This document shows, piece after piece, positions 32,173 through 53,169 of a DNA stretch of 64,000 bases. Origin of the DNA: Tissierellales bacterium (GTDB lineage: Bacteria; Bacillota; Clostridia; Tissierellales; JAOAQY01); contig JAOAQY010000034.1 of assembly GCA_025210965.1 (NCBI GenBank), positions 32,207 through 96,206 on the forward strand. Reading direction: 5' to 3'. How positions within the stretch are numbered: the first letter of the stretch is position 1; the number at the start of each line of letters is the position of its first letter. The notes under the pieces were generated by a model. The model was not told where the DNA came from. It worked only from the letters and a program-made list of their open reading frames with translations, and ran no database searches. The position numbers and the translations under genes were made by a program.

Positions 32173-33813
32173 ATGCAAAAAGAAATGTTAGTAGGTATTT
32201 TAGGTGGTTTGGGATTGTTTTTGTATGGCATGAACCTTATGGGGACGGCGTTACAGAAAGTTGCTGGTGAGAAGATGAAGCAGCTTATTGGAGTGCTTAC
32301 AAATAATAGGTTCTTAGGTGTCGTTGTTGGAGCTATAGTTACTATGTTGATTCAAAGTAGTAGTGCTACAACTGTAATGGTTGTTGGTTTTGTAAATGCT
32401 GGTTTGATGACGCTTGGACAAGCTATTGGTGTTATTATGGGAGCTAATATTGGTACAACGATTACAGCGCAGTTAGTTGCATTTAAGCTAACAGATGTGG
32501 CGCCATTTGTAATTGCTTTGGGGGTTCTTATATGGCTTGGAGCATCTAAAAAGAAACACAAGGATATTGGAGAGATATTAATTGGTTTTGGTATATTATT
32601 CTTAGGAATGGGCATGATGTCAGGAGCTATGAAACCTCTTAGAACTGACGAGACTTTCAAAAGTTTACTTGCGAATTTAGAAAATCCATTTTTGGGTATA
32701 GCAGTTGGATTTATAATTACTGCAGTAGTACAAAGTAGTAGTGCGACTACTGGGATGCTTTTAGCACTTGCTAGTGCAGGAGCTATAGGAAATTTAGGAT
32801 CGGTTATACCTATACTATGTGGGCAGAATATAGGAACATGTGTTACAGCTATGATTTCGAGTTTTGGAGCAAATAAGACAGCAAAACGTGCTGCATTTAT
32901 GCATTTATTATTTAATGTTTTTGGTACAATTATTTTTATGACCATAGTCGCAATATTCCCTATAACTCAGATGATTCATGAGCTATCTCCAGAGGATATG
33001 TCGAGACAGATAGCAAATGCACATACATCTTTTAATATTTTGAATACATTGTTATTGTTCCCATTTGCTAACTGGTTTGTTAGAATTGCAGAAAAAGTTA
33101 TACAGGGTGAAGATGTTGACGAAACAGGTCTTAAATACATTGACTCTAGAATCATAGAAACGCCTTCGATTGCTGTCATGATGGCATCTAAAGAGGTGTT
33201 AAGAATGGGGAAGACTGTTAATAAATCTTTAAAATTGACGAAAGAAGCGTTTTTGGAACTTGATGAAAAGAAAATAGAAAAAGTGCTTGAAAGAGAGAAA
33301 AATATAAATGCACTTGAAAAGGATATAGTTTCTTATTTGAGCGAAGTGTTGAATGCTCAATTGACCAATGAACAACATGCAGTTGTTACTACCTTGTTTA
33401 ATACTGTAAATGATTTAGAAAGAGTTGCGGATCATGCAGAAAATATTGTGGAATTAGCTCAATATAGAATTGACAATAAAATTAAATTTTCTGAGGGTGC
33501 ACTTCTTGAATTAGATGTGATGTTTGAAAAAGTTGATAGAGCATATACTACTGCTTTGAATTCTTTTAAAACAGGCGATGAAGTTATGATAAAGCAAGTA
33601 TTTGATTTTGAAGAACAAGTTGATCAATTGGAAAAAGAAAATAGAAAAAATCATATAAAAAGATTAAATGATAAGGCATGTAAGCCAGAATCTGGTATAA
33701 TATATCTAGAGGTTATTGGAAACCTTGAAAGAATAGGTGACCACTCGGCGAATATAGCAGAATCAATACTTGAAGGAGTTAGAAGCAAGGCTATAGCTCA
33801 AAATATAAATTAA
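32173..33813 (+). CDS. Na+/phosphate cotransporter family protein with C-terminal PhoU-like repeats
   Basis: It has duplicated QSSSATT motifs in the membrane part and C-terminal PhoU-type helices (ERVADHAENI, ERIGDHSANI). The RBS GGGAGGA precedes ATG 32173. Confidence 0.85.
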   Translation: MQKEMLVGILGGLGLFLYGMNLMGTALQKVAGEKMKQLIGVLTNNRFLGVVVGAIVTMLIQSSSATTVMVVGFVNAGLMTLGQAIGVIMGANIGTTITAQLVAFKLTDVAPFVIALGVLIWLGASKKKHKDIGEILIGFGILFLGMGMMSGAMKPLRTDETFKSLLANLENPFLGIAVGFIITAVVQSSSATTGMLLALASAGAIGNLGSVIPILCGQNIGTCVTAMISSFGANKTAKRAAFMHLLFNVFGTIIFMTIVAIFPITQMIHELSPEDMSRQIANAHTSFNILNTLLLFPFANWFVRIAEKVIQGEDVDETGLKYIDSRIIETPSIAVMMASKEVLRMGKTVNKSLKLTKEAFLELDEKKIEKVLEREKNINALEKDIVSYLSEVLNAQLTNEQHAVVTTLFNTVNDLERVADHAENIVELAQYRIDNKIKFSEGALLELDVMFEKVDRAYTTALNSFKTGDEVMIKQVFDFEEQVDQLEKENRKNHIKRLNDKACKPESGIIYLEVIGNLERIGDHSANIAESILEGVRSKAIAQNIN

Positions 33814-33885
33814 AAATCTTGAAATATTCAGAAAATACAATCGTGATCAAATTTTATCAATAATAACAAAAAATGAAAAAAGTGA

Positions 33886-33914
33886 TTGACGTTTTTTTCA
33901 CAATGAGTTATACT
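33886..33914 (+). promoter_or_regulatory. SigA-type promoter P1 driving glycine riboswitch module 1
   Basis: The arrangement is TTGACG - 17 nt - TATACT. Confidence 0.6.
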
Positions 33915-33980
33915 AGTGCTATAAGAAAGATTGGTGATTGAAATTCATTAATTTATCTTACTATAGCAATCGGATGAAGT

Positions 33981-34147
33981 ATGCGGGAGAGACCGAAAGG
34001 CGCCGAAGGAGTAAGAGTTATTTATGCCATAGATAGCTTGAAACTCTCAGGCAAAAGGACCGTGTGTGGACGAAACTCTGGAAAGCGAAGTGTCACCGAT
34101 GGAGCAATATTCTTTTAAGAATAGAATCTCTCAGGTTAAGGAACAGA
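33981..34147 (+). promoter_or_regulatory. Glycine riboswitch, module 1 (two aptamers in tandem)
   Basis: Aptamer 1 is GCGGGAGAGACCGAAAGGCGCCGAAGGAG...AAACTCTCAGGCAAAAGGACCG. Aptamer 2 is GGACGAAACTCTGGAAAGCG...CACCGATGGAGCAA...TCTCTCAGGTTAAGGAACAGAG. Both match the conserved cores of the glycine riboswitch class. Confidence 0.85.
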
Positions 34148-34181
34148 GCGCAGGCAAATTAATTTTGCTTGCGCTTTTTTT
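34147..34181 (+). terminator. Expression-platform terminator of riboswitch module 1
   Basis: The stem AGCGCAGGCAAA/TTTGCTTGCGCT (one G-U) is followed by TTTTTTT. Its 5' arm abuts and overlaps the 3' strand (CAGAG) of aptamer-2 P1. Confidence 0.8.
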
Positions 34182-34243
34182 AGGCTCTGAAATAATCAAT
34201 TGGATCGAAAAATTGAATTATCGAAATAATTCATAAAAAAGCA

Positions 34244-34271
34244 TTGACCTTTTCAAAAAAAACGTTATACT
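34244..34271 (+). promoter_or_regulatory. SigA-type promoter P2 driving glycine riboswitch module 2
   Basis: The arrangement is TTGACC - 16 nt - TATACT. Confidence 0.55.
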
Positions 34272-34337
34272 GTATGTATAAGCACTAGTTATAAAAAACG
34301 AAATGCGATTAATAAAATTAATATATCTGAATGAAAC

Positions 34338-34506
34338 ATACGGGAGAGACCGAAAGGCGCCGAAGGAGTAAGATTTATTTTTGCCAAAAATATTTTGAAA
34401 CTCTCAGGCAAAAGGACCGTATGTGGACAGAACTCTGGAAAGCGAATTGTCACCGACGGAGCAATATTCTCTAGGAGAATAGAATCTCTCAGGTCCCAAA
34501 ACAGAG
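34338..34506 (+). promoter_or_regulatory. Glycine riboswitch, module 2 (two aptamers in tandem)
   Basis: It is near-identical to the module 1 aptamer cores (ACGGGAGAGACCGAAAGGCGCCGAAGGAG...CTCTCAGGCAAAAGGACCGT; GGACAGAACTCTGGAAAGCG...CACCGACGGAGCAA...TCTCTCAGGTCCCAAAACAGAG). Confidence 0.85.
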
Positions 34507-34541
34507 CATAGGCTATATTGTTACCTATGCTCTGTTTTTTT
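34502..34541 (+). terminator. Expression-platform terminator of riboswitch module 2
   Basis: The stem CAGAGCATAGG/CCTATGCTCTG is followed by TTTTTTT. Its 5' arm is the 3' strand of aptamer-2 P1, which is ON-switch logic. Confidence 0.85.
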
Positions 34542-34582: not shown

Positions 34583-34957
34583 ATGAATTATGTATTAACG
34601 AATAATCCAAAAGTAAAACAACGTTTAGAGGACCAAATTGAGGTCAAGTATTTTGATGTTAGCTTGTATGAAATCATAAAGCGAACTAGAGATGCGATTC
34701 ACAAAGGAGATGAATTGTTAACACACCCTTTGTCAAGTAGTATAAAGCCTAATGAGACACCATATAAGAGTGTTGTGTTGAAAGAGGGAAATTTAGTTTG
34801 TTTAGATTCAGTGAAAATTATTGAGGAGTCTATACAGGTGGCAGAAAAGTTTTTGAACGATTTTGTTACACCAGACTGGACTGAAAAAGTTTTAGATGAC
34901 TTTCAAACGATTGACTTATCAGTGCTTGAAAACGCATTGCAAAATATGCTGTTTTAA
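34583..34957 (+). CDS. grdX: Glycine reductase complex-associated protein GrdX
   Basis: It is the ~124-aa first gene of a grd operon, with N-terminus MNYVLTNNPKV and ...ELLTHPLSSSIKPNETPYKS. The RBS AGGTGAGGG precedes ATG 34583. Confidence 0.75.
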   Translation: MNYVLTNNPKVKQRLEDQIEVKYFDVSLYEIIKRTRDAIHKGDELLTHPLSSSIKPNETPYKSVVLKEGNLVCLDSVKIIEESIQVAEKFLNDFVTPDWTEKVLDDFQTIDLSVLENALQNMLF

Positions 34958-35004
34958 GATATAGAATTAAGGTTTTATTTTATAAGCGAAAGGAAGTGAA
35001 AAAG

Positions 35005-35940
35005 ATGAGTGAAGTTTATGACATAGTTATTATAGGAGCTGGACCGGCTGGACTTGCTGCTGGACTTTATGCTGGAAGATCAAAGATGAAAACTTTGATT
35101 ATAGAAAAAGCGAAAGCAGGAGGACAGATAGTTATAACTGAAGAAGTTGAAAATTATCCAGGTTCAATAGAAAATGCTACTGGACCAACACTAATTTCTC
35201 GAATGGTAAAACAAGTAGATGAATTTGGTGCTGAAAGAGTTATTGATACTGTGAAATCAGTTAAAACTGAAGGCGAATATAAGCTAGTTGTAGGAAGTCA
35301 AGCAACCTACAAAGCTAAGTCTGTTATTGTTGCATCAGGTGCTAAGCCAAAGACACTTGGTTGTCCTGGAGAGAAGGAATTTACTGGGAAAGGGGTTTCT
35401 TATTGTGCTACTTGCGATGCAGCCTTTTTCGAAGACTTCGAAGTATTCGTAGTAGGCGGTGGAGATTCTGCTGTTGAAGAGGCAATTTATTTATCAAGAT
35501 TTGCTAGAAAGGTAACAATACTTTACCGAAAAGGCGTATTTAGAGCTGCTAAGTCATTGGCAGATAAAGCTTTGAATAATGAAAAAATTGAAGTTAAATG
35601 GTTTACTGAGGTAAAAGAAATCGCCGGAGATGGTATAGTGCAAGAAATGACATTATTTAACAATCAGACTGGTGAAGAAGAAATCATCAAAGCTGATGAA
35701 GATGATGGTATGTTTGGTGTATTTATGTTTGTAGGATATGAACCACAGACACAGATTTATGAAGGTTTATTGGAAATGGAACATGGATACATTGTTACAG
35801 ATACAGAAATGAGAACTAATGTAGATGGGATATTTGCAGCAGGAGATTGTAGAGTTAAATCACTCAGACAAGTTGTTACAGCTTGTGCTGATGGTGCAAT
35901 TGCAGCAACTCAAGCTGAAAAATATATAGAAAAAATTTAA
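35005..35940 (+). CDS. trxB: Thioredoxin-disulfide reductase
   Basis: It has the FAD motif IIGAGPAG, the redox-active CATC (SYCATCDA), the NADPH motif VVGGGDSAVEEA and the C-terminal GIFAAGD. Confidence 0.9.
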   Translation: MSEVYDIVIIGAGPAGLAAGLYAGRSKMKTLIIEKAKAGGQIVITEEVENYPGSIENATGPTLISRMVKQVDEFGAERVIDTVKSVKTEGEYKLVVGSQATYKAKSVIVASGAKPKTLGCPGEKEFTGKGVSYCATCDAAFFEDFEVFVVGGGDSAVEEAIYLSRFARKVTILYRKGVFRAAKSLADKALNNEKIEVKWFTEVKEIAGDGIVQEMTLFNNQTGEEEIIKADEDDGMFGVFMFVGYEPQTQIYEGLLEMEHGYIVTDTEMRTNVDGIFAAGDCRVKSLRQVVTACADGAIAATQAEKYIEKI

Positions 35941-35981
35941 AAAGATAATTTATTATCTTTAACCTTTTGGGGGTGACGTAA

Positions 35982-37268
35982 ATGCGTTTGGAACTTGGAA
36001 AAATATTTATCAAAGATATGGTTTTTGGAGAAAAAACTGAGGTTAAAAATGGAACACTTCACGTCAATAAGCAGGAAGTGCTCGACTTAATCAAAGAGGA
36101 CGAGAATTTTAAGTCAATTGACTTAGAAATCGCAAAACCTGGTCAAAGTATCAGAATTACACCAGTAAAAGATGTTGTAGAACCAAGAGTAAAGGTAGAA
36201 GGTCAAGGTGGAATTTTCCCAGGCGTTTTATCAAAAGTTGATACAGTAGGTTCTGGTAGAACTCACGTATTACAAGGAGCAGCAGTTGTAACAACTGGTC
36301 ATATTGTTGGATTCCAAGAAGGAATTATAGATATGACAGGTACTGGTGCAGAGTATACACCATTTTCAAAATTAAATAATCTTGTAGTTGTTTGTGAGCC
36401 AATTGATGGTTTAAAAGCACATGATTATGAAAAATCAGTTCGTTTAGCTGGATTTAAAACTGCTAAATATTTAGGTGAGTTTGGTAGAGAAATTACACCA
36501 GACGAAATCGACACATATGAAACACTTCCATTATTTGAAGGTGCTGCTAAGTACCCTAATTTACCGAAGGTAGCATATGTACAAATGCTTCAAAGTCAGG
36601 GATTGTTACATGATACTTATGTATATGGTGTAGACGCTAAGCGTATAATTCCTACTCTTATAAGCCCAACTGAAATTATGGATGGAGCAATTATCAGTGG
36701 TAACTGTGTATCGGCTTGCGATAAAAATACAACTTACCACCACTTAAATAACCCAGTTATTAAAGATTTATTTGCTCAGCATGGAAAAGAAATTAATTTT
36801 GTTGGTATGATTATAACAAATGAAAATGTTTATCTAGCAGATAAAGAAAGATCATCTAATTGTACTGCTAAATTAGCAGAATTCTTAGGATTAGATGGTG
36901 TAGTTATTTCTCAAGAAGGATTTGGTAATCCAGATACAGACTTGATAATGAACTGCAAAAAAATCGAAGACAAAGGTATTAAAACAGTTATTATTACTGA
37001 TGAGTATGCAGGTAGAGATGGAGCTAGTCAGGGATTGGCAGATGCTGATGTTAAGGCAAATGCTGTAGTTACAGGTGGAAATGCCAACCAAGTTATTGAT
37101 TTACCAGCATTGGATAGAGTTATTGGAGATCCAACTAAGGTTGATATAATTGCAGGTGGATTCGATGGAAGTCTTAGAAAAGATGGATCTATTCAAGTTG
37201 AACTTCAAGCTATTACTGGAGCAACTAATGAATTAGGTTTCAATAAATTAACTGCTAAGACATACTAA
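35982..37268 (+). CDS. grdE: Glycine reductase protein B proprotein GrdE (alpha/beta subunits, pyruvoyl-forming)
   Basis: It is 428 aa and lies immediately upstream of grdA/grdB. By my count the Asn241-Cys242 pair (SGN|CVSACDK, Cys codon 36705-36707) sits at the position where GrdE proproteins self-cleave. Confidence 0.85.
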   Translation: MRLELGKIFIKDMVFGEKTEVKNGTLHVNKQEVLDLIKEDENFKSIDLEIAKPGQSIRITPVKDVVEPRVKVEGQGGIFPGVLSKVDTVGSGRTHVLQGAAVVTTGHIVGFQEGIIDMTGTGAEYTPFSKLNNLVVVCEPIDGLKAHDYEKSVRLAGFKTAKYLGEFGREITPDEIDTYETLPLFEGAAKYPNLPKVAYVQMLQSQGLLHDTYVYGVDAKRIIPTLISPTEIMDGAIISGNCVSACDKNTTYHHLNNPVIKDLFAQHGKEINFVGMIITNENVYLADKERSSNCTAKLAEFLGLDGVVISQEGFGNPDTDLIMNCKKIEDKGIKTVIITDEYAGRDGASQGLADADVKANAVVTGGNANQVIDLPALDRVIGDPTKVDIIAGGFDGSLRKDGSIQVELQAITGATNELGFNKLTAKTY

Positions 37269-37312
37269 TTTGATTTAATATGGAATAATATGTATAGAGA
37301 GGATGTTATAAG

Positions 37313-37771
37313 ATGAGCGTTATCGATAATAAAAAAGTTATCATTATCGGGGACCGCGACGGTGTACCGGGACCTGCTATTGAGGAATGCTTAAAAGGAA
37401 CTACTGCAGAAGTTATATTCTCATCAACAGAGTGTTTTGTTTGAACGGCTGCGGGTGCGATGGATTTGGAAAATCAAAAAAGAATTAAAGACTTTGCAGA
37501 GCAATACGGAAAAGAAAATTTATTGGTTATTTTAGGTGCAGCTGAAGGTGAAGCTTCTGGGCTTGCAGCAGAAACAGTAAGAGTTGGAGATCCAACTTTT
37601 GCAGGACCATTATCTAATGTAGCTTTAGGGTTAGATGTATATCATATAGTAGAATCAGAAATTAAAGATAACGTTGATGCTGAAATTTATGATGAGCAAG
37701 TAGGCATGATGGAAATGGTATTAGATGTAGAAGATATCATCGGAGAAATGACTGATATTAGAGAAAGCTAA
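37313..37771 (+). CDS. grdA: Glycine reductase selenoprotein A (GrdA); in-frame UGA = selenocysteine at 37442-37444
   Basis: ATG 37313 has the RBS GAGAGGA. Translation gives [26 protein letters not shown]...[18 protein letters not shown], the conserved GrdA redox motif. The ORF track only shows the part after the UGA (37460..37771), in the same frame. Confidence 0.9.
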
Positions 37772-37807
37772 AAAAATCATTATCCCAAGAGAGAGAGGGG
37801 TGTCACA

Positions 37808-39118
37808 ATGGGCAAATTAAAAGTAGTACATTATATAAATCAATTCTTTGCTGGTATTGGCGGCGAGGAGAAAGCAGATTACAAACCAGAATTAAGAGAA
37901 GAGGTAGTAGGTCCAGGTGCAGCGTTAGAGGCGGCATTCGGAGATGAAGCAGAAATCGTAGCGACAATTATTTGTGGAGATTCTTATTTCAACGAAAACT
38001 TAGATGAAGCTAAGGCGGAAGTTCTTGATTTCGTTAAGAAATATGAACCAGATGTATTTGTTGCAGGTCCAGCATTTAATGCAGGTAGATACGGTGTTGC
38101 TTGCGGAACAATTGCGGATGCAGTTAAAGAAGAGTTAAATATACCTGTTATCACTGGTATGTATGAAGAAAATCCAGGTGCAGACATGTTTAAGAAAAAC
38201 TTGCATGTTGTTGCAACTAAAAACAATGCAGCTGGTATGAGATCTGCTGTGAAAACTATGGCTCCACTTACACTTAAATTAGCTAAAGGTGAAGAAATTG
38301 GAAGTCCTAAAGAAGAAGGATACATGGAGAGAGGCGTTCGTGTGAATTATTTTGCAGAAGAACGCGGTGCAACTCGTGCTGTAAATATGCTTGTTAAAAA
38401 GCTAAAAGGTGAGGAATTTGAAACAGAATTCCCAATGCCAGTATTTGATCACGTAGCTCCAAATCCAGCTGTTAAAGATATCACTAAAGCTAAAATTGCT
38501 TTGGTTACATCAGGTGGTATAGTGCCTAAGCACAATCCAGATCATATTGAAGCATCAAGTGCATCAAAATATGGTAAATACGATATAGATTCAGTAATGG
38601 ATTTGACTGAAGAAGGTTATGAAACAGCACATGGTGGATATGATCCAACTTATGCAAATGAAGATTCAGATAGAGTATTGCCAGTTGACGTATTAAGAGA
38701 TCTTGAAAAAGAAGGAAAAATTGGTGAACTTCACAGATATTTCTATACTACAACAGGTAATGGTACTGCTGTTGCTAGTTCTAAGCAATTTGCAGAAGAA
38801 TTCTCAAAAGAATTACTAGCTGATGGAGTAGATGCAGTTATATTAACTTCTACTTGAGGCACTTGTACTCGTTGCGGTGCAACGATGGTAAAAGAAATTG
38901 AAAGAGCGGGAATTCCTGTAGTACACATGTGTACAGTAGTTCCTATTTCATTGACAGTTGGAGCGAATAGAATTATACCAACAATTGCTATTCCACATCC
39001 ACTTGGAAACCCAGCATTAACAATGGAAGAAGAAAAAGTTATCAGAAGAGATTTAGTAGTTAAAGCATTAAAAGCATTAGAAACAGAAGTAGACGGACAG
39101 ACTGTATTTGAAGACTAA
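37808..39118 (+). CDS. grdB: Glycine reductase selenoprotein B (GrdB); in-frame UGA = selenocysteine at 38855-38857
   Basis: The ORFs 37808..38857 and 38885..39118 are in the same frame. Read-through gives ...VILTST-U-GTCTRCGATMVKEIERAGIP, the conserved GrdB Sec motif. The total is 436 aa. Confidence 0.9.
38869..38885 (+). promoter_or_regulatory. Candidate SECIS hairpin for the grdB UGA
   Basis: A 7-bp stem TCGTTGC/GCAACGA with a GGT apical loop starts 11 nt after the UGA. Confidence 0.45.
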
Positions 39119-39299: not shown

Positions 39300-39367
39300 A
39301 GAAGATGGAAGATTTGAGGAAAACGTATTCACGTTTTTTCAAATTAAATAGCATGAGGAGGGTTAAT

Positions 39368-40465
39368 ATGTTAAAGAAAAAAATTGCTTTAGGTTTAGCA
39401 GCAGCATTAGTTTTAACATCTGCAGTAGGGTGTTCAGGTGGAGAAAAAACTGAGCCAGCTAAAGAGGAAACAAAACCAGCAGAACAAACAGAGGCAGCAA
39501 AAGAGGAAGCACCAGCTGCTGAAAAGGCATTAAAAGTAGGTATGGTTACTGATGTTGGTGGAGTAAATGACGAGTCATTTAACCAATCAGCATGGGAAGG
39601 TCTTGTAAGAGCTAAGGATGACTTAGGAATTGAAGTTAACTACATCGAGTCAAAACAAGATGCTGACTACCAAACAAACTTAGAAACTATGATCGACAGT
39701 GAAAATGATTTGATTTGGGGTATTGGATACAAAATGGGTGACGCTCTTTTAGATTCAGCTAAGCAAAATCCAGATCAAAAATATGCAATTATCGACTATT
39801 CTTACGGAGATTCTACTCCAGAGAATATCGTAGGTGTTGTATTCCATCAAGAACAATGTTCTTTCTTAGTTGGATATATCGCAGGTAAAATGACAGAGAC
39901 TAATAAAGTTGGATTTGTTGGTGGTATGACAGGTGCATTAATCGAACAATTCGAAGCTGGATACAAAGCAGGCGTTAAGTATGCTAATCCAAATGCAGAA
40001 ATTGCTTCACAATATGCAGAGTCTTTCTCAGACGCAGCAAAAGGTAAAGCTATTGCTCAAAAAATGTATAATGATGGCGCTGATATCGTATTCCACGCAG
40101 CTGGAAACGTAGGATCAGGTGTTATTGAAGCAGCAAATGAAATGGGTAAATGGGCAATCGGTGTTGACAGAGACCAAAACTACTTGGCTCCAGATCACGT
40201 ATTGACATCAGCTATGAAATTAGTTGGATCAGGAACTTACAACATTACTAAAGACTTAATGGACGGCAAGTGGGCTGGTGGAACTACTGTAGATTACGGT
40301 GTTGCAGAGCAAGGTGTTGGTATTGCTCCTACATCACCAAACCATGTTCCAGCTGAAATTTTAGAAAAAGTTACTAATATCGAAAGTAAAATTGCTTCAG
40401 GTGAAATCGTTGTACCTTTGACAAATGAAGAAGCAGAAGCTTTTGATGCAACTGACGCTGAATAA
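39368..40465 (+). CDS. BMP family (PnrA/Med-like) nucleoside ABC transporter substrate-binding lipoprotein
   Basis: It has a signal peptide with the lipobox AVGCSG, a Glu/Ala/Lys/Pro-rich linker, and a BMP core (VGMVTDVGGVNDESFNQSAWEG). The RBS AGGAGG precedes ATG 39368. Confidence 0.85.
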   Translation: MLKKKIALGLAAALVLTSAVGCSGGEKTEPAKEETKPAEQTEAAKEEAPAAEKALKVGMVTDVGGVNDESFNQSAWEGLVRAKDDLGIEVNYIESKQDADYQTNLETMIDSENDLIWGIGYKMGDALLDSAKQNPDQKYAIIDYSYGDSTPENIVGVVFHQEQCSFLVGYIAGKMTETNKVGFVGGMTGALIEQFEAGYKAGVKYANPNAEIASQYAESFSDAAKGKAIAQKMYNDGADIVFHAAGNVGSGVIEAANEMGKWAIGVDRDQNYLAPDHVLTSAMKLVGSGTYNITKDLMDGKWAGGTTVDYGVAEQGVGIAPTSPNHVPAEILEKVTNIESKIASGEIVVPLTNEEAEAFDATDAE

Positions 40466-40508
40466 TAATTTGATTAGTAAGTTTATATAGGGTTAGTATG
40501 TTTTAGAT

Positions 40509-40538
40509 ACAGCTCAGGCCTACTGTCTGAGCTGTTTT
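40509..40538 (+). terminator. Intra-operon (partial) terminator after the binding-protein gene
   Basis: A 9-bp stem ACAGCTCAG/CTGAGCTGT is followed by TTTT. Confidence 0.65.
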
Positions 40539-40648
40539 AATTTTGAGGTTGATTTTATTGTATTTAAATTAATCTAAAGGGTTTTGGCTCTTAAATTTTT
40601 AAGTATTATGTTTAGGGTGTAATATAAGATAGAATGGAGGTTTTATTC

Positions 40649-42190
40649 TTGGGCAACAATATTGATTTTGGTTGTAAAGTCGTAGAAATGAAGAATATTA
40701 CAAAAAAATTCGGAGATTTTACGGCGAATCATAACATTGATTTGACGATTCACAAGGGTGAAGTTCATGCCCTCTTGGGAGAGAATGGTGCTGGAAAGAC
40801 GACACTTATGAACACATTGTATGGTTTGTATAGACCGACAACGGGGGAAATTTACATTGATGGTAAGAAAGTGTCTATGGATAATCCTAATGTTGCAATA
40901 GAGCATGGGATTGGTATGGTGCATCAACATTTTATGTTGGTAGAACCATTTACAGTAACAGAAAACATTATATTAGGTATGGAAGTTACAAAAACTGGCG
41001 GTTATATTGATATTAACGCTGCTAGAAAAAAAGTTAAAGAATTATCAGACAAATATGGTTTGGTAGTAGATCCTGATGCTAAAATTCAGGATATTACAGT
41101 TGGTATGCAGCAGAGAGTTGAAATTTTAAAAGCACTTTATAGAGGTGCGGATATACTCATATTAGATGAGCCGACGGCGGTATTAACGCCTCAGGAAATT
41201 AGAGATCTTATAAAAATTATAAGAAATCTAACAGAAGAAGGCAAAAGCATTATAATAATAACGCATAAATTGAAGGAAATTAAAGCTGTTGCTGACTATT
41301 GTACTATAATAAGACGTGGTAAACATATAGATACAGTAGAAGTTGAAAAGGTTACTGAAAACGATCTTGCATCAATGATGGTAGGTAGAGAAGTTAACTT
41401 CATCGTTGAGAAGGAAGAGCGTGAAGCTGGAGATGTTGTTCTTCAGATTGAAAATCTTGTGGTAAAAGATAATAGAGATATCCCACAAGTAGATGGTTTG
41501 TCATTAGAGGTTAGACGTGGAGAAATTCTTGGTTTAGCTGGAGTTGATGGAAACGGTCAAAGTGAACTTGTAGAGGCACTTACTGGACTTAGAAAATCTG
41601 AGTCTGGAAAAGTATTTATGAATGGTGAAGATATAACAAATAAACCACCTAGAAAAATCATTGACAGTAAACTATCTAGTATACCTGAAGATAGACAGAA
41701 AAGAGGTCTAGTTCTTCAATATTCAGTAGCAGAAAATATGATATTAGAAAATTATATGAAAGAGCCATTTTCTAAAAAAGGAAGGTTCTTAAATCATGAC
41801 AAAATAAAAGAACATGCAAAAGCGTTGATTGAAAAGTTTGATGTGCGACCAACAAATGGCTCGTTGCCAGCAGGGGCACTATCAGGTGGTAATCAGCAAA
41901 AGGTAATCATTGCAAGAGAGGTTACAAATGATCCAGACTTGCTTATAGCTGCGCAACCTACTCGTGGATTAGATGTTGGAGCTATAGAATATGTTCATAA
42001 GTCATTAGTAGAACAAAGAGATAAGAATAAAGGTGTTTTACTAGTTTCATTAGAGTTAGACGAAGTTATGAATGTTTCTGACAGAATAGCAGTAATTTAC
42101 GAAGGAAAAATCGTAGGTATAGTCGATGCAGCAGAAGCTGATGAAAATACAATCGGTTTGATGATGGCAGGAGGTGCATCTGATGAGTAG
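40649..42190 (+). CDS. ABC transporter ATP-binding protein with two fused NBDs (nucleoside/sugar type)
   Basis: Walker A is GENGAGKTT, and there is a second NBD with LSGGNQQK. The start is ambiguous: TTG 40649 (GGAGG 8 nt upstream) or ATG 40688. Confidence 0.85.
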   Translation: MGNNIDFGCKVVEMKNITKKFGDFTANHNIDLTIHKGEVHALLGENGAGKTTLMNTLYGLYRPTTGEIYIDGKKVSMDNPNVAIEHGIGMVHQHFMLVEPFTVTENIILGMEVTKTGGYIDINAARKKVKELSDKYGLVVDPDAKIQDITVGMQQRVEILKALYRGADILILDEPTAVLTPQEIRDLIKIIRNLTEEGKSIIIITHKLKEIKAVADYCTIIRRGKHIDTVEVEKVTENDLASMMVGREVNFIVEKEEREAGDVVLQIENLVVKDNRDIPQVDGLSLEVRRGEILGLAGVDGNGQSELVEALTGLRKSESGKVFMNGEDITNKPPRKIIDSKLSSIPEDRQKRGLVLQYSVAENMILENYMKEPFSKKGRFLNHDKIKEHAKALIEKFDVRPTNGSLPAGALSGGNQQKVIIAREVTNDPDLLIAAQPTRGLDVGAIEYVHKSLVEQRDKNKGVLLVSLELDEVMNVSDRIAVIYEGKIVGIVDAAEADENTIGLMMAGGASDE

Positions 42191-43307
42191 TAATCAAAAT
42201 AAACAACTTAGCCCGCTTGTGATGACCATTATATCGATTTTACTTGGTATGGCTGTTGGGGCAATTATATTATTAGCAATTGGTTATAATCCATTTGAAG
42301 CATATGGGATTATGATAAATGGTATATTTGGAAAGCCTAAGTATATGTCTTGGACAATAATTACGGCAACTCCACTTATTATGACTGGTTTGTCAGTTGC
42401 TTTTGCTGATAAGACAGGTTTATTTAATATCGGAGCAGAGGGTCAATTTATAATTGGTGCTCTAGTAGCTGCTTTAGCAGGATATTTCTTACACCTTCCA
42501 GTAATAATTCATGTTATAGTAGTATTTGTTTTGGCCTGTCTTGCAGCCGGCGTTTGGGGCGGTATTGCAGGATGGATGAAGGCAAGATTTGGAATAAATG
42601 AAGTTATATCTACTATTATGCTCAACTGGATAGCATTCTATTTGAGCAATTATATAGTCGGACTAAAAGGTTTCAAAAATCCTAACAACGATGCATCTAT
42701 GAAGATACTTAAGACAGCTAGAGTTGATATTTTAGGTGATTGGAAATTAACAGAGGCTGGTAGAGCTTGGAGAGGGGAACACCCGTTTTTTAACAGTGTA
42801 TTTACTACGCCAGTTAATATAGGATTTATCATAGCTATATTGTTAGCTGTTTTAGTTTGGTTTATATTAAACAAAACTACACTTGGATACGAATTGAAAG
42901 CTGTAGGACATAACAAGGATGCAGCTGAGTATGGTGGAATAGATGTGAAAAAGAAAATGGTAACGTCGATGTTTATTTCAGGAGCTTTAGCAGGAGCAGC
43001 AGGAGCGCTACAGGTAATGGGTAGAACTCAAGGTATTGCACTGCTTAGTGTACAAGAAGGACATGGATTTGACGGTATCGCAGTATCTCTTATCGGATCA
43101 AGTAATCCATTTGGAATTATTTTATCAGGACTTTTCTTTGGAGGACTTAAATATGGTGGGACTAAGATTCAGCCTAGATTAGGAGCTCCTTATGAGATTG
43201 TAAACATAGTACTTGGAACGATAGTATTCTTTGTTGCTATTCCAAGATTGTTTAGAGGATTGAATAAATTATTACAAAAAAAGAAAAGTGGTGATATAAA
43301 TGCTTAG
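42183..43307 (+). CDS. ABC transporter permease (BMP/nucleoside system)
   Basis: It is a polytopic membrane protein. The RBS GGAGGTG precedes ATG 42183, which overlaps the ATPase stop. Confidence 0.8.
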   Translation: MSSNQNKQLSPLVMTIISILLGMAVGAIILLAIGYNPFEAYGIMINGIFGKPKYMSWTIITATPLIMTGLSVAFADKTGLFNIGAEGQFIIGALVAALAGYFLHLPVIIHVIVVFVLACLAAGVWGGIAGWMKARFGINEVISTIMLNWIAFYLSNYIVGLKGFKNPNNDASMKILKTARVDILGDWKLTEAGRAWRGEHPFFNSVFTTPVNIGFIIAILLAVLVWFILNKTTLGYELKAVGHNKDAAEYGGIDVKKKMVTSMFISGALAGAAGALQVMGRTQGIALLSVQEGHGFDGIAVSLIGSSNPFGIILSGLFFGGLKYGGTKIQPRLGAPYEIVNIVLGTIVFFVAIPRLFRGLNKLLQKKKSGDINA

Positions 43308-44271
43308 TGGTTTTGATTTAGCTCGTGCAATTGGTGATTTAGGTTTTATTATAGGAACTTCACTTATGTACGCGACACCATTGATATACACATCACTTGG
43401 TGGTACAGTGAGTGAAAACTCAGGAGTTGTAAATATTGGTCTAGAGGGTATGATGGCAATCGGAGCTTTTGTGGCAGCTGCAGTTGGATACTTTACAGGT
43501 AATCCTTGGCTTGGATTTTTAGCAGGTGGTGCAGCAGGAGGACTGATGGCGTTACTTCACGCTATTGCTAGTGTTACACTTGCAGCGGATCAGATTATAT
43601 CAGGTGTTGCGATTAACTTTTTAGGGCCTGGTCTTGCATTATTTTTATCTCGCGTATTCTTTGAAAATGCAACTACAACAAAGGCACTTGATTTGAAGAA
43701 TAAAATTGAGAGACCATTGAATGGTTTGTTTACTCAGGGATCGTTCTTAGATTCTGTATTTAACCAATATACTACAGTTTATTTAGCGTTTTTCTTAGTA
43801 TTTGTGATATGGTTTATGCTTTATAAAACTAGATTTGGACTTAGACTTAGAGCTTGTGGAGAACATCCTAAAGCGGCAGATACATTGGGTATAAATGTAT
43901 ATAGAATAAGATATATAGCTGTGATCATGTCTGGTATATTAGCTGGATTTGGTGGAGCATCACTTAGTATAGCAGTTGTCTCAAGATTCAGCCCTGCGCT
44001 TATATCTGGACAAGGATTTATCGCTCTTGCTGCTATGATATTTGGAAAGTGGAAGCCGCAAGGAGCTATGGGAGCATCTCTATTCTTTGGAGCTGCAACT
44101 GGATTATCTATATACATCGGATCGCTTGAGAATGTTAATGTTTCATCACACTTGTTACAGATGATTCCTTACATCTTGACATTAGTTGTTCTTATGGGAT
44201 TCATTGGTAAAGCGACAGCACCAAGTGCTGATGGTGAAGCTTATATAAAAGATGGTGAAGGTAGAGTTTAA
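43300..44271 (+). CDS. ABC transporter permease (BMP/nucleoside system)
   Basis: It is a polytopic membrane protein whose start overlaps the preceding permease by 8 nt. Confidence 0.8.
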   Translation: MLSGFDLARAIGDLGFIIGTSLMYATPLIYTSLGGTVSENSGVVNIGLEGMMAIGAFVAAAVGYFTGNPWLGFLAGGAAGGLMALLHAIASVTLAADQIISGVAINFLGPGLALFLSRVFFENATTTKALDLKNKIERPLNGLFTQGSFLDSVFNQYTTVYLAFFLVFVIWFMLYKTRFGLRLRACGEHPKAADTLGINVYRIRYIAVIMSGILAGFGGASLSIAVVSRFSPALISGQGFIALAAMIFGKWKPQGAMGASLFFGAATGLSIYIGSLENVNVSSHLLQMIPYILTLVVLMGFIGKATAPSADGEAYIKDGEGRV

Positions 44272-44291
44272 AACTATCGATTAATTGAAAG

Positions 44292-44325
44292 ACTGCTCTT
44301 GTTATGGTAAGAGCAGTTTTTTTTT
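44292..44325 (+). terminator. Intrinsic terminator
   Basis: The stem ACTGCTCTT/AAGAGCAGT is followed by TTTTTTTTT. Confidence 0.8.
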
Positions 44326-44466
44326 GAAATGATATAGTTGAGATTTGTTTTGTAATATTTTTATTGACTAAAATATTTAAATAAGATTGATATTGGTACT
44401 GTTTCTTATATATAATATAAGTATGAAAAGGGATACTAGTTGGTATAGCGATTTGGAGTGAGTTAT

Positions 44467-45867
44467 ATGAATATTGGATTTGGGTTGAATTTGGAACAGA
44501 CTCAGAAGTTAATAATGACAACAGAATTAAAGCAGGCAATACAATTATTACAATATACTAGCATTGAACTTAATGATTATATAACAAGCGAAATGGAGGT
44601 AAATCCTCTGCTTGAATTTGATCAAAAAAAAGAGAAAAGTGAAGAGTTTGAAGAAAAAACTAAAAATGATGATAAAGAAATTGACTGGCAAGAGTATGCA
44701 AATCAATACGATGATATCAGCTATTCTCAGCATGGTAAAAACAACGATAATGAAAACTCATTTGAAAATATGGTTGCAGAACAAGAGACACTTAGAGACT
44801 ATTTGATTCATCAATTAAGAAATAATTATAAACTTACTGAAGATGAGTTTGAAATTGGAAGTTTTATAATTGAAAGTCTAGATTCTAATGGCTATTTGTC
44901 TTTCAAAATTGAAAATATCGCTGAATTTTTGGGAAAAAGCGTTGAAGAAATAGAGAATATGCTTTATATAATACAATCGTGTGAGCCAGTAGGAGTAGGG
45001 TGCAGAAATTTAAAGGAGTGTTTACTTCTTCAGGTTGAGCGAGATAATGAGTCGGATCCGAAAGCTAGAGAAATTATTGAAGATTATTTAGAAGATATTG
45101 CGAGTAATAAAGTCACACAAGTGGCAAAAAAAATGGGGCTAGAAGCATCTCAGGTACAAGTTTTGTTTGACTATATAAAAACACTTCAACCTAAACCAGG
45201 GAGTGGATTTAATTTTTCGAATGAGGAGATTAAATTTATACAACCAGATGTAGAACTAAAAGAAATAGATGGTGAAATGGTCATTTTGGTCAAAGATAGT
45301 GCAGCACCTAGACTTAGAATTAATGATTTTTATAGAAAGATGCTTCAGAGTCAAGATCAAAAAGAAGTTTCGGAGTTTATAAGTGAAAAATTAAATTCTG
45401 CAGCATGGCTTATCAAAACAATCGAACAAAGAAGAAGTACAATTCAAAGAGTTGCAGAGGCAATATATAAAAGACAAGTTGATTTCTTCAAAGATGGCAA
45501 GCAAGCACTTAAGCCAATGACACTAAGAGATATAGCTGAAGAAATCGAAATGCACGAGTCTACAGTTAGTAGAGCAACTAATGGAAAGTATATATTAACG
45601 CCAAAAGGTACCTATGAACTAAAGTATTTTTTCTCTACAGGATTATCTCAGGGAAGTGGAGGTTCGGAAGAGGAGATTTCTACAATGAAGATAAAGATGG
45701 AACTACAAAAGATAGTTGAGGAAGAAGATACTAAGAAGCCACTTAGTGATCAAAAAATAGTTTCAAAATTGAAGGAAAATGGTTTCACAATATCAAGGAG
45801 AACGGTTGCAAAGTATAGAGAAGAGCTTGGAATACTATCATCGTCTAAGCGAAAAAGATTTGACTAA
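44467..45867 (+). CDS. rpoN: RNA polymerase sigma-54 factor
   Basis: It has the Gln/Leu-rich region I (LEQTQKLIMTTELKQAIQLLQ), an HTH (ESTVSRATNGKYI) and the RpoN box (SRRTVAKYREELGI). The RBS GGAGTG precedes ATG 44467. Confidence 0.9.
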   Translation: MNIGFGLNLEQTQKLIMTTELKQAIQLLQYTSIELNDYITSEMEVNPLLEFDQKKEKSEEFEEKTKNDDKEIDWQEYANQYDDISYSQHGKNNDNENSFENMVAEQETLRDYLIHQLRNNYKLTEDEFEIGSFIIESLDSNGYLSFKIENIAEFLGKSVEEIENMLYIIQSCEPVGVGCRNLKECLLLQVERDNESDPKAREIIEDYLEDIASNKVTQVAKKMGLEASQVQVLFDYIKTLQPKPGSGFNFSNEEIKFIQPDVELKEIDGEMVILVKDSAAPRLRINDFYRKMLQSQDQKEVSEFISEKLNSAAWLIKTIEQRRSTIQRVAEAIYKRQVDFFKDGKQALKPMTLRDIAEEIEMHESTVSRATNGKYILTPKGTYELKYFFSTGLSQGSGGSEEEISTMKIKMELQKIVEEEDTKKPLSDQKIVSKLKENGFTISRRTVAKYREELGILSSSKRKRFD

Positions 45868-45973
45868 GTGAACAAATGAAAAAAAGTGACAGAAATTAAT
45901 AAATGACTTGTATTTTTTTAGTAAGTATATTATAATGAGGTTGCATGGAGATGCAATCTTTTTTTGTAACAAT

Positions 45974-46008
45974 TGGGACGAAAAACGTCCCCAGGGACAA
46001 AAATGATC
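45974..46008 (+). promoter_or_regulatory. CggR operator-like tandem repeat upstream of cggR-gap
   Basis: The sequence is TGGGAC-gaaaaa-CGTC-ccca-GGGAC-aaaaat-GATC with a 19-bp period. It resembles the B. subtilis CggR operator CGGGAC-N6-TGTC-N4-CGGGAC-N6-TGTC. Confidence 0.6.
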
Positions 46009-46024
46009 CGTAGGAGAGGTCAAG

Positions 46025-47050
46025 ATGAATGATATTTTAGAAGTTCAGAAAAAAGTTATTCCTGAAATGATTGAACTGTTAGAGAAGAGGTATAATATAT
46101 TACGTAGTATATATTTTAGTCAGCCAATCGGAAGACGGACTCTAGCAAATTCATTGGAGTTAGGAGAGCGAGTCATACGAACTGAAACGACTATGTTAAG
46201 AGAGAGTCGTTTGATAGATATAGATTCATCAGGTATGAAACTCACTGATGAAGGCATTGACATCTTGAATAGTTTGCAAGACTTTATGCATGATGTTAAG
46301 GGATTAAGTGATTTAGAGAAAACAATTGCTGATCAGCTTAATATAAAGAAAGTAATAATAGTGCCTGGTATCTATGATGAAGATTCATGTGTAGTGAAAG
46401 ATATCGGTAAGATTGCATCATTATTTGTCAAAAAACAATTGTTTGAAGGCTGTATAGCTGGTATAACAGGTGGGACGACGATGTATGAAGTGGTTGAAGC
46501 ACTACAATCAACAGATATAAATAAATCATTTCTTATTGTTCCTGCTCGCGGGGGAGTTGGAGCAAATTTAGAAATTCAAGCTAATAATATTGCAGCAACA
46601 TTTGCTAGAAAGCTCGGGGGAGAATACAAATTGTTGCAAGCGCCAGATAATGTTAATAAAGAAGCGTTTGAATCGTTGGTCAGATTGCCAGAAATTCAAG
46701 AATTGGTTGAAATAATAAAGAAATTAGATATTCTCATGTTTGGAATCGGCAGGGCTGACAAGATGGCAAAGAGAAGAAATCTGTCAAATGAACAGTTTGA
46801 AGAGCTTGAAAAAGGTAATGCAGTAGCAGAGGCTTTTGGCTATTACTTTGATATTGATGCAAATATTATTAGAGAGTCTAACACTATAGGGCTTCAACTA
46901 GATGATTTTAAAAAGATAAAGTTAGCTATTGGAGTTGCATGTGGTAAAGAAAAGGCTGAGGCAATGATGGCTATTTCTAGATTAAAGAAAGATTTAGTGC
47001 TAATTATGGATGAAGGAGCAGCTAGAGCTCTTTTAGATAAATTGTTTTAA
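46025..47050 (+). CDS. cggR: Central glycolytic genes regulator (SorC/DeoR-type sugar-binding repressor)
   Basis: It is 341 aa and immediately upstream of gap. It has an N-terminal wHTH and a SorC-like sugar-binding domain (ITGGTTM...VPARGG). Confidence 0.85.
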
Positions 47051-47070
47051 GTTTGAAGGAGGAATTTGAT

Positions 47071-48081
47071 ATGGCAACTAAAATTGCAATCAATGGTTTT
47101 GGAAGAATTGGTAGAAATGTATTAAAAGCAGCTGTAGAAAGAGGCGTTGAAGATTTTGAAATAGTAGCAATCAACGACGGGGTAGATGCTAAAAGTTTAG
47201 CACATTTATTAAAATATGATTCATGCTTTGGTAAGTTCAATGGAACAGTAGAAGCTAAAGATGATGCATTGATCATCAATGGAAAAGAAGTTAAGAAACT
47301 TAGAGAATTTGATCCAGCTAAATTACCTTGGGGAGAATTAGGTGTTGATATCGTTATCGAATCAACTGGATTCTTTAGAGATCGTGAAGGTGCAGCTAAG
47401 CATATCACTGCTGGAGCTAAGAAAGTTATCATCAGTGCACCTGCTAAAGATGAAGACATTACTATCGTAATGGGCGTTAACGAAGGCGATTATGATGCAG
47501 CTAATCACCACATTATTTCAAATGCATCTTGTACAACAAACTGTGTTGCACCATTTGCAAAAGTGATTCTTGAGAAATTTGGTATTGAAAGAGGTTTGAT
47601 GACAACAGTTCACTCATACACTAATGACCAAAACATATTAGATGCTGGACATTCAGATATGAGAAGAGCAAGAGCAGCAGCTGAGTCAATTATTCCTACT
47701 ACTACTGGAGCAACAAAAGCAGTTGGTAAAGTAATTCCTGAATTGCTTGGTAAATTAGATGGTATGGCAATGAGAGTGCCAACTCCAACAGTTTCACTAG
47801 TTGATATGGTATTTGAGTTATCTAAAAAAGCAACAGTTGAAGAAATCAATGGAGCTCTTAAAGAAGCTGCAGAAGGTGAATTAGCTGGTGTATTAGGATA
47901 TTCTGATGAGCCATTAGTATCAATTGACTACAGAAAAGATCCTAACTCTTCAATCGTTGATAGCTTATCAACAATGATCGTTGGAGATAACTTAGTTAAA
48001 ATCGTATCTTGGTACGACAATGAGTGGGGTTACTCAAATAGAGTTGTTGATTTAACAGCTTTAGTAGCTAAAAGCTTATAA
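47071..48081 (+). CDS. gap: Type I glyceraldehyde-3-phosphate dehydrogenase
   Basis: It has INGFGRIGR, the active site SNASCTTNC and WYDNEWGYS. The RBS GAAGGAGG precedes ATG 47071. Confidence 0.95.
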
Positions 48082-48096
48082 ATAGAAATAAAAACT

Positions 48097-48127
48097 GCGC
48101 TTAGCCACTTGGCTAAGCACGGTTTTT
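48097..48127 (+). terminator. Probable (leaky) terminator after gap
   Basis: The stem GCGCTTAGCC/GGCTAAGCAC (one mismatch) is followed by GGTTTTT. Confidence 0.6.
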
Positions 48128-48325
48128 GATTATAATTATTTTTACTGAAAGTTAATATTAGATATGCCATTTGCTGAATGGCTGAATCATGCCAAGCTAT
48201 TTTAAATGCATATATGTATCTGAATAGCTTTTTTTATAGTTTTAAAATCGAACGTTTAGATATATAATATAGAAGAGAGAAGTCTGAGGACTTCTATATG
48301 AAATGTAAGTCGAGGAGGAACGTCA

Positions 48326-49519
48326 ATGTTAAACAAAAAATCAGTTGAAAATCTTCAGGTAAAAGGAAAACGAGTTTTAGTAAGATGCGATTTCAATGTT
48401 CCTATGGATGGAGAGAGAAATATTACAAATGATGCTAGAATACAAGCGGCATTACCAACTATCAAATACTTGATTGATAATGAAGCAAAAGTAATTTTAA
48501 TGTCTCATCTAGGAAGACCAAAAGGAGAAGCAAAGGCTGAATATAGCTTAGATAAGGTTGCTGCTAGATTAAGTGAAGTTTTAGGCAAAAGTGTAGTATT
48601 TGCTGATGATGATACAGTAGTTGGTGACAATGCGAAAAAAGCAGTTGAAGAAATGAATGCTGGCGATGTAGTGTTGTTACAAAATACTCGTTATAGAAAA
48701 GAAGAAACGAAGTGCGGAGAAGATTTTTCAAAAGAATTAGCAGAGCTTGCGGATCTTTATGTAAATGATGCATTTGGAACGGCACATAGAGCTCATGCAT
48801 CTAATGTTGGTGTTTCAAACTTGTTGCCATCAGCAGTTGGATACTTAGTGAAGAAAGAATTAGATATAATGGGTAAAGCTATGGAAGCACCAGAGCGACC
48901 ATTTGTAGCAATTTTAGGTGGTGCAAAAGTTTCTGATAAAATAGGTGTAATTGAAAATTTACTTGATAAAGTAGATACGCTTATTATCGGTGGTGGAATG
49001 GCTTATACATTCTTTGTTGCAAAAGGCTGGGAAGTGGGTAAATCACTTTTAGAAACAGATAAAGTAGAATTAGCAAAAACATTGATGGAGAAGGCAGAGG
49101 AAAAAGGCGTTAAACTATTACTACCTATGGATACTGTTGTAGCTAAAGAATTTAAAAATGATACAGAGTTCTTTACTGTAGAGTCTAATGAAATTCCTAG
49201 TGATATGGAAGGATTAGATATTGGTGAGAAAACAAGAGAAATATTTGCAGCGGCAGTAAGAGAAGCGAAAACTGTAATTTGGAATGGTCCTATGGGAGTT
49301 TTTGAAATGGAAAACTTTGCAAAAGGAACATTAGCAGTTGCAGATGCTATGGCTGATTCTGATGCAGTTACTATAATCGGTGGCGGAGATAGTGCGGCAG
49401 CTGTTGCTCAAACAGGATTATCAGAAAAAATGACACATATATCTACTGGTGGTGGAGCTTCACTTGAATTGTTCGAGGGAAAAGTATTACCAGGAATAGA
49501 CGCAATTGATGAAAACTAA
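48326..49519 (+). CDS. pgk: Phosphoglycerate kinase
   Basis: It has [23 protein letters not shown] and GGGDSAAAV motifs. Confidence 0.95.
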
Positions 49520-49531
49520 GGAGGCAGAATA

Positions 49532-50278: not shown

Positions 50279-50292
50279 GAAGGTTGTCTAAT

Positions 50293-51831: not shown

Positions 51832-51864
51832 AGATGGATTGTATATAAATAACCTTGAGATTAA

Positions 51865-53169
<1,305 letters not shown>

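Follow-up and report, generated by a model that had tools for sequence, protein, structure and literature searches.

Layout of the grdX control region

A glycine reductase (grd) gene cluster that begins with grdX lies in a 64,000-nucleotide (nt) stretch of DNA from a Tissierellales bacterium (contig JAOAQY010000034.1, positions 32,207 to 96,206), which was analysed at its full length and is hereafter called the window. Ahead of grdX, two complete modules, each consisting of a promoter, a tandem glycine aptamer pair and a terminator, follow one another in series (Table 1), confirming an initial annotation that had been made from the letters of the sequence. When the whole window was scanned against Rfam 15 with cmscan, the glycine riboswitch family RF00504 (gathering score, 32 bits) matched four times, always on the plus strand and with at least 32 bits. 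These are the four aptamers that the initial annotation had expected: the first and second aptamers score 62.4 (33974-34072, E = 1.5e-10) and 38.4 bits in module 1, and 68.2 (34331-34429, E = 4.6e-12) and 37.6 bits in module 2. Apart from these, Rfam matches the 64 kb only once, at a SECIS_4 element (38858-38895).

The two modules appear as a direct repeat (33974-34113 versus 34331-34470, 90% identity) with a period of 357-358 nt, longer than the unit of about 330 nt first proposed. An assembly artefact can be ruled out, since 10-16% of aptamer positions differ between the copies, which cannot be aligned outside the aptamers. Both promoters lie where they had been annotated, and no credible open reading frame (ORF) is found between the first terminator and the second promoter (34182..34243), again as annotated.

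Table 1. Positions of the control-region features and of the genes that follow them, numbered along the window.
Feature	Position	Strand	Evidence
P1, module-1 sigma-A-type promoter (TTGACG-17-TATACT)	33886..33914	+	10/12 consensus match
Leader 1 (-10 end to P0 helix)	33915..33969	+	
Module 1, P0/K-turn 5' strand (UCG-GAU-GA, 33970-33977) and aptamer 1	33970..34072	+	RF00504
Module 1, aptamer 2	34076..34148	+	RF00504, 38.4 bits
T1, module-1 intrinsic terminator (13-pair stem, 5-nt loop, U7)	34146..34181	+	
Inter-module spacer, A-rich	34182..34243	+	
P2, putative internal promoter of module 2 (TTGACC-16-TATACT)	34244..34271	+	10/12 consensus match
Leader 2 (with ATTAAT-AAA-ATTAAT at 34308-34322)	34272..34326	+	
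Module 2, P0/K-turn 5' strand (CUG-AAU-GA) and aptamer 1	34327..34429	+	RF00504
Module 2, aptamer 2	34433..34506	+	RF00504, 37.6 bits
T2, module-2 intrinsic terminator (perfect 15-bp stem, then U run)	34498..34541	+	
grdX (first gene under control; 124 aa from ATG 34583)	34583..34957	+	NCBIfam NF038093 GrdX, 3e-38
trxB, grdE, grdA, grdB	34996..39118	+	NCBIfam matches

Conservation of the two modules

The anatomy, homology and conservation of both modules can be read directly from the locus. Both first aptamers match 35 of the 36 highly conserved positions and form all 20 model pairs, whereas both second aptamers form all 15 of their model pairs and match 29 of the 36 positions; helix P2 of the aptamers is shortened by the deletion of two or four model pairs. 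Additionally, in a feature absent from the initial annotation, leader and linker form a P0 helix with a kink-turn (K-turn) in each module, UCG-GAU-GA...GGA-CGA in module 1 and CUG-AAU-GA...GGA-CAG in module 2, with standard pairs throughout (U33970-A34073, C33971-G34072 and G33972-C34071; C34327-G34430, U34328-A34429 and G34329-C34428). The exchange of UCG/CGA for CUG/CAG represents two double compensatory changes between the modules, and P0 is formed in all 11 relatives examined, mostly as CUG/CAG.

Module-to-module identity was computed segment by segment, each segment being set against its shuffle mean. It amounts to 89% in aptamer 1 (shuffle mean 47%), 84% in the linker and aptamer 2 (47%), 71% in the region from -35 to -10 (46%), 58% in the terminator (46%), 54% in the leader (49%; 37-54% depending on the alignment) and 49% in the post-terminator segment (47%). 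The aptamer-1 sequences differ at 11 positions, four of them in helix P1, six in the variable P3b insert and one in the 3' flank. All four helix-P1 differences keep pairing (G.U to A-U or U.G to C-G), so that the structure-preserving difference described in the initial annotation stands, as wobble exchanges rather than double substitutions, and P3b of aptamer 1 contains one true compensatory exchange of A-U for U-A (34024/34030 versus 34381/34387). The P3b loops and terminators have diverged, as annotated, but not "completely", given the 58% identity of the terminators and the six differences in the aptamer-1 insert.

Neither module scores below its single-copy orthologues (56.8-58 bits for the first and 35.6-35.8 bits for the second aptamer), and module 1 thus shows no sign of the decay that had been raised as a possibility. 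Since unconstrained sequence is saturated while the aptamers have been kept, with helices intact and compensatory changes in P0 and P3b, the two modules of about 357 nt each appear to be an old local duplication under purifying selection, in line with the earlier proposal that both copies are maintained. The fine-scale mosaic of conserved cores and diverged loops likewise points to purifying selection rather than to decay or gene conversion. Both modules are very probably functional.

Age and distribution of the duplication

The relatives whose GrdX is 68% (loci L003-L008) or 65% (L009) identical to that of the window have one tandem riboswitch each. Closer relatives show contig ends that fit a double module. 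The contig of a 98% GrdX relative (L001) starts at GAGAGACCGAAAGGCGCCGAAGGAGTAAGAT, the first 31-mer that tells module 2 from module 1, which is consistent with the break that a k=31 de Bruijn graph would suffer at a two-copy repeat. Two further contigs, L090 and L002, come from one sample and belong to an 83% GrdX relative. L090 carries the sodium/phosphate (Na/Pi) gene that precedes the control region, a promoter of the module-1 type, GATTGACGTTTTTTTCACAACAGGTTATACT, a leader that has diverged and the P0/P1 strand of module 1, and it ends at ...CGCCGAAGGAG; L002 starts at GAAGGAGTAAATC..., inside aptamer 1, where L090 ends. The overlap between them is only 7 nt, compared with the 30 nt expected for adjacent unitigs, and this fits an intervening shared repeat unitig. 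Since the breaks in these Logan contigs (k=31) fall at the borders of shared sequence (L001 1-31, L090 6808-6837, L002 1-30), short tandem riboswitch duplications are likely to be systematically split, and under-counted, in such assemblies.

Over 144 shared aptamer positions, the modules differ from each other at 19, module 2 differs from L002 at nine and from L001 at four. Of the 20 sites that distinguish the modules, 16 are in the module-2 state in L002, and P3b of aptamer 2 in L001 carries the module-1 state. The distances, together with the module-2 states of L002, suggest that the duplication predates the split between the window and L002; it would be later than the split from L003 and L009.

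A wider survey covered the 1.5 kb upstream of grdX in 80 GTDB species representatives with GrdX among the matches listed, by an aptamer-1 nhmmer profile in all 80 loci and by Rfam in 40 of them. The best GrdX among these matches is 55% identical to that of the window, whose own species is not included. About 50 of the 80 species carry one glycine riboswitch immediately 5' of grdX, and a second aptamer-1 within 1.5 kb was found in none of the 80. The remaining loci, about 30, have grdX, but a glycine aptamer could not be detected within 1.5 kb upstream of it; they include L013, L015-L017, L020, L024, L026, L028, L030 and L031, and many are of the Tissierellia type. Riboswitch control of grd is common and far from universal. 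In metagenomes of the Joint Genome Institute (JGI), the exact pattern CCGAAGGAGTAAG N{329,359} CCGAAGGAGTAAG, which represents the double module, had no match, and neither had a module-1 40-mer common to the window and L090, again searched as an exact pattern.

The restriction of the duplication to one lineage in this survey is what would be seen if one module were inert and decaying, or if the likeness of the aptamers were kept by gene conversion instead of selection, and the module-1 state of P3b in L001 could reflect occasional conversion. Nevertheless, this explanation is highly improbable in view of how identity is distributed within 180 nt, the cores having kept it and the P3b loops, J3/1 junctions and terminators having lost much of it, as well as of the compensatory changes and of bit scores that in neither module fall below those of the orthologues.

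Two proposed attenuators in series

Each aptamer pair is followed by an intrinsic terminator, as had been annotated. T1 (stem 34146-34158/34164-34176, U7 to 34181) lies in a 71-nt segment that folds with -26.5 kcal/mol (z = -4.3), and T2 (stem 34498-34512/34524-34538, U run to 34541) folds with -22.5 kcal/mol (z = -4.75). A consensus terminator scanner picked up neither of them, which is due to its stem and loop rules; the terminators are present. The T2 stem takes in the whole 3' strand of aptamer-2 helix P1 and four junction nucleotides, a design common to L001 and L002, and when helix P1 is enforced a hairpin of only about -7 kcal/mol is left, 5 nt from the U-tract. On this folding model, module 2 is predicted to be a clear ON switch.

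The reading that we favour, with a probability of about 0.6, is that two glycine-ON attenuators act in series, having arisen by an old duplication of the grdX regulatory unit and both having been kept by selection. The duplicated unit would comprise a promoter, a leader of about 56 nt, a two-aptamer riboswitch with its leader-linker K-turn and an intrinsic terminator. Polymerase starting at P1 would have to read through T1 and then T2, and glycine would promote read-through by stabilising the aptamer fold and the second-aptamer helix P1 at the expense of the terminator. With two serial glycine-dependent read-throughs, P1-driven expression would scale with the product of two probabilities, which should keep leak very low and make the response steeper. 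P2 is probably active too, and would feed transcripts that meet only the tighter switch of module 2. The same logic has been proposed for quadruplet glycine aptamers (Sherlock et al., 2022), and glycine induces grd in Clostridioides difficile, where the riboswitch is single. Glycine binding, antitermination and P2 activity are what we infer here from the arrangement and conservation of the elements; the activity of P2 and the resulting two-tier response are plausible, promoter elements being conserved between the two modules of this single sequence.

Several observations weigh against this reading. T1 shares only 3 nt with the 3' strand of aptamer-2 helix P1, and two of the three pair with U-tract residues; additionally, a 9-bp hairpin 2 nt from the U-tract persists in module 1 when that helix is enforced (residual fold -15.2 kcal/mol, small extra helix included). 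The overlap between terminator and helix P1 that had been annotated for both modules thus extends over the whole strand in T2 but is confined to these 3 nt in T1, and the ON logic ascribed to both copies is clear for module 2, whereas for module 1 it rests on the short overlap. Because of this overlap and the surviving hairpin, module 1 may respond weakly to glycine. Each second aptamer departs from consensus at seven of the 36 conserved positions, most of which belong to the junctions or the A-rich bulge. Promoter-like matches overall are not enriched in the AT-rich region (five found, 4.8 expected), and P2 is without comparative support, no relative sequence spanning T1, the spacer or P2. 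Finally, the presence of both modules in relatives is a matter of fit, being deduced from contig ends.

Module 1 and the upstream transporter gene

The single-copy relatives L009 and L003 show the low-overlap terminator design of T1, with -11 and -13 kcal/mol remaining, and on these grounds T1 presumably represents the ancestral, workable design and T2 a derived, tighter one. This ancestral likeness is clear only in design, i.e., in the extent of the overlap. The proposal that T1 is also ancestral in sequence, and T2 derived, was rejected, since T1 and T2 are about equally close in sequence to the terminators of L009 and L003 (52-55% versus 44-54% identity).

The upstream neighbour of the control region is a gene for a Na/Pi symporter-PhoU fusion, with its stop at 33813. 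No intrinsic terminator is found between this stop and P1, either in the window (33813-33886) or in L090 (6641-6715), unlike in L009, where a terminator of -26 kcal/mol follows the Na/Pi-PhoU gene (1640-1710). T1 is thus the first terminator that Na/Pi-PhoU transcripts meet. It could be, then, that the chief role of module 1 is to terminate or insulate and to supply a short riboswitch RNA, T1 stopping both P1 transcripts and Na/Pi-PhoU read-through largely regardless of glycine, and that P2 and module 2 are the real control of grd. In agreement with this possibility, the T1 hairpin near the U-tract survives closure of aptamer-2 helix P1, and helix P1 of aptamer 1 in module 1 has four G.U pairs among its eight. 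However, a plain terminator needs neither aptamers kept at 35 of 36 core positions and compensatory P0 changes nor a conserved promoter of its own, and the single-copy orthologues, which must switch, share the low-overlap design. We therefore regard an insulating module 1 as improbable.

Phosphate is a substrate of glycine reductase, and for this reason the co-orientation of the Na/Pi-PhoU gene and grd may be non-accidental.

The second aptamers

In the second aptamers the deviating positions are 34083, 34100 and 34136-34142 in module 1, and 34440, 34457 and 34494-34500 in module 2. The J1/2 junction reads GGAAAG, and J3/1 is off consensus in both (CCCAAAA in module 2). The A-rich bulge is CCGAUGG in module 1 and CCGACGG in module 2, compared with CCGAAGG in L003 and L009 and in both first aptamers of the window. 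The single-copy orthologues L003 and L009 also have a non-consensus J3/1 in the second aptamer. The A-rich bulge in P3 of each aptamer makes A-minor contacts with P1 of its partner (Ruff et al., 2016; PMC5066625). Given the seven missed positions, the four aptamers may amount to two good sensors and two scaffolding partners; the second aptamer may be partly "ghost-like" in this clade, and a count of four glycine aptamers may exceed that of true sensing sites.

The putative internal promoter

Promoter P1 shares 79% identity with its counterpart in L009 and L003, the single-copy orthologues, and keeps the ancestral form of the spacer (71% identical to both); in L090, both of its hexamers are identical, with three changes in the spacer, and the leader is not conserved. 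The hexamers of P2 match those of P1 at 11 of 12 positions, whereas the two spacers are only 53% identical. The distance from the end of the -10 element to the P0 helix is exactly 56 nt in both modules. P2 also retains the A-tract 5' of -35 and the TATAAG start region.

These features bear on whether the locus is a single transcription unit, in which P2 would be an unused relic and all grd transcripts, starting at or upstream of P1, would face both checkpoints. The locus would then be a purely cooperative and pseudo-cooperative quadruplet, which is how the 16 examples known so far were interpreted (Sherlock et al., 2022). This model gains from the divergence of the P2 spacer (47-53% identity; 16 nt versus 17 nt in P1) beside the ancestral spacer of P1, and from the frequency of promoter-like matches in AT-rich DNA. 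It is nonetheless rather unlikely. Matches as good as P1 and P2, with at least 10/12, are rare (57 in the 128 kb of strand that make up the window, or 4.5e-4 per nt per strand). The P2 hexamers have stayed like those of P1 amid flanks of about 50-55% identity (binomial P about 0.003-0.008), the A-tract, the start region and the exact distance to P0 have been kept, and it is leader 2, not leader 1, that resembles the single-copy orthologue leader (63% versus 49% identity to L009).

An AT-rich inverted repeat of low information content, ATTAAT-AAA-ATTAAT, stands in leader 2. It sits in a block, CGATTAAT..AATTAATA, that leader 2 has in common with the single-copy orthologue leaders (L009, about 2050-2070, and L003) and that is degraded in leader 1. 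The repeat might be an operator or a leader hairpin.

The serial-attenuator reading can be extended, tentatively, to a control region with two entries and two checkpoints. Here P1 and Na/Pi-PhoU read-through would feed transcripts through T1 and then T2, whereas P2 transcripts would see T2 alone; T1 would be the ancestral low-overlap switch and T2 a derived and much tighter one; T1 would, depending on glycine, end the phosphate transporter transcript; and in either module the second aptamer would serve chiefly as a scaffold instead of as another sensor. That all of these parts hold jointly is somewhat unlikely. If they did, glycine would induce the selenoprotein genes in two tiers, the low one graded and the high one near-digital.

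Comparison with known tandem riboswitches

Whether the four-aptamer arrangement had been described before, a question raised by the initial annotation, can be answered from the literature: 16 examples of quadruplet glycine aptamers were reported in 2022 and were predicted to be both cooperative and pseudo-cooperative (Sherlock et al., 2022; RNA Biol 19:1059, PMC9481103). As in those quadruplets, one gene is preceded by two riboswitches that have two aptamers and an expression platform apiece. Unlike the quadruplets as they appear in the text of PMC9481103, where neither gene context nor an inter-switch promoter is given, the present locus has a conserved-looking promoter between the modules, and its two terminators differ in overlap design. 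The layout was thus already catalogued, and the locus is a well-preserved further example with no new mechanism.

The more usual arrangement is exemplified by Clostridioides difficile, in which the grd transcription start site lies 297 nt 5' of grdX, glycine induces the operon and the riboswitch is single. The window shares with C. difficile and many Clostridia and Tissierellia a leading grdX, the P0/K-turn, two aptamers and a terminator, and differs in having two modules instead of one. Independent, complete riboswitches that share a ligand and carry a terminator apiece also stand in series on one leader, with pseudo-cooperative behaviour, in the tandem thiamine pyrophosphate (TPP) riboswitches of Bacillus anthracis and the triple-tandem cyclic di-GMP (c-di-GMP) riboswitch Bc3-5, although these respond to other ligands and have a single aptamer per unit. 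A further parallel is Clostridium botulinum's tandem of an adenine riboswitch and a T-box(Tyr), for which the same source shows canonical -35/-10 elements before and between the two elements, so that the number of checkpoints depends on promoter choice (Sherlock et al., 2022; PMC9481103); as described there, its sensors are heterologous and form a logic gate, whereas here both respond to the same ligand.

Nature has few means of sharpening a dose-response that is based on RNA, and stacking riboswitches is one of them; the quadruplet glycine layout is listed in the literature, where we found no dissection of one. The locus described here offers a natural test case, as its modules have diverged everywhere except where function demands, its two terminators are of visibly different switching design, and its probable internal promoter would allow transcripts with one and with two checkpoints to be compared in the same cell. 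The genes under control are the costly selenoprotein genes of Stickland glycine fermentation.

Genes of the cluster and minor features

GrdX homologues are about 124-130 aa long. An in-frame UGA codon for selenocysteine (Sec) is present in grdA (37442-37444) and in grdB (38855-38857). The grdB codon is followed directly by the SECIS_4 match (selenocysteine insertion sequence; 65.9 bits), in contrast to the grdA codon, for which Rfam gave no SECIS match at the gathering threshold. None of grdC, grdD and trxA was found within the window, and the riboswitch-controlled cluster thus encodes proteins A and B, GrdX and TrxB only.

Downstream of T1, the sequence TTGAATTATCGAAATAATTCATAA (34213-34236) resembles the start of grdX, ATGAATTATGTATTAACGAATAATCCA, and would encode an ORF of seven codons. 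This may be a relic that marks the end of the duplicated unit, the similarity being non-significant (p about 0.08). An attempt to map the duplication junction was dropped, as local alignments of TTGAATTATCGAAATAATTCA with the grdX start or with the region upstream of P1 did not rise above shuffles (p about 0.07-0.08).

On the 3' side of grdB, four genes encode an ATP-binding cassette (ABC) transporter of the Bmp/PnrA type, in the same order as in L002. They are followed by rpoN and then by a cggR-gap-pgk-tpi-pgm-eno glycolysis cluster, the whole stretch extending from 39305 to 53169.

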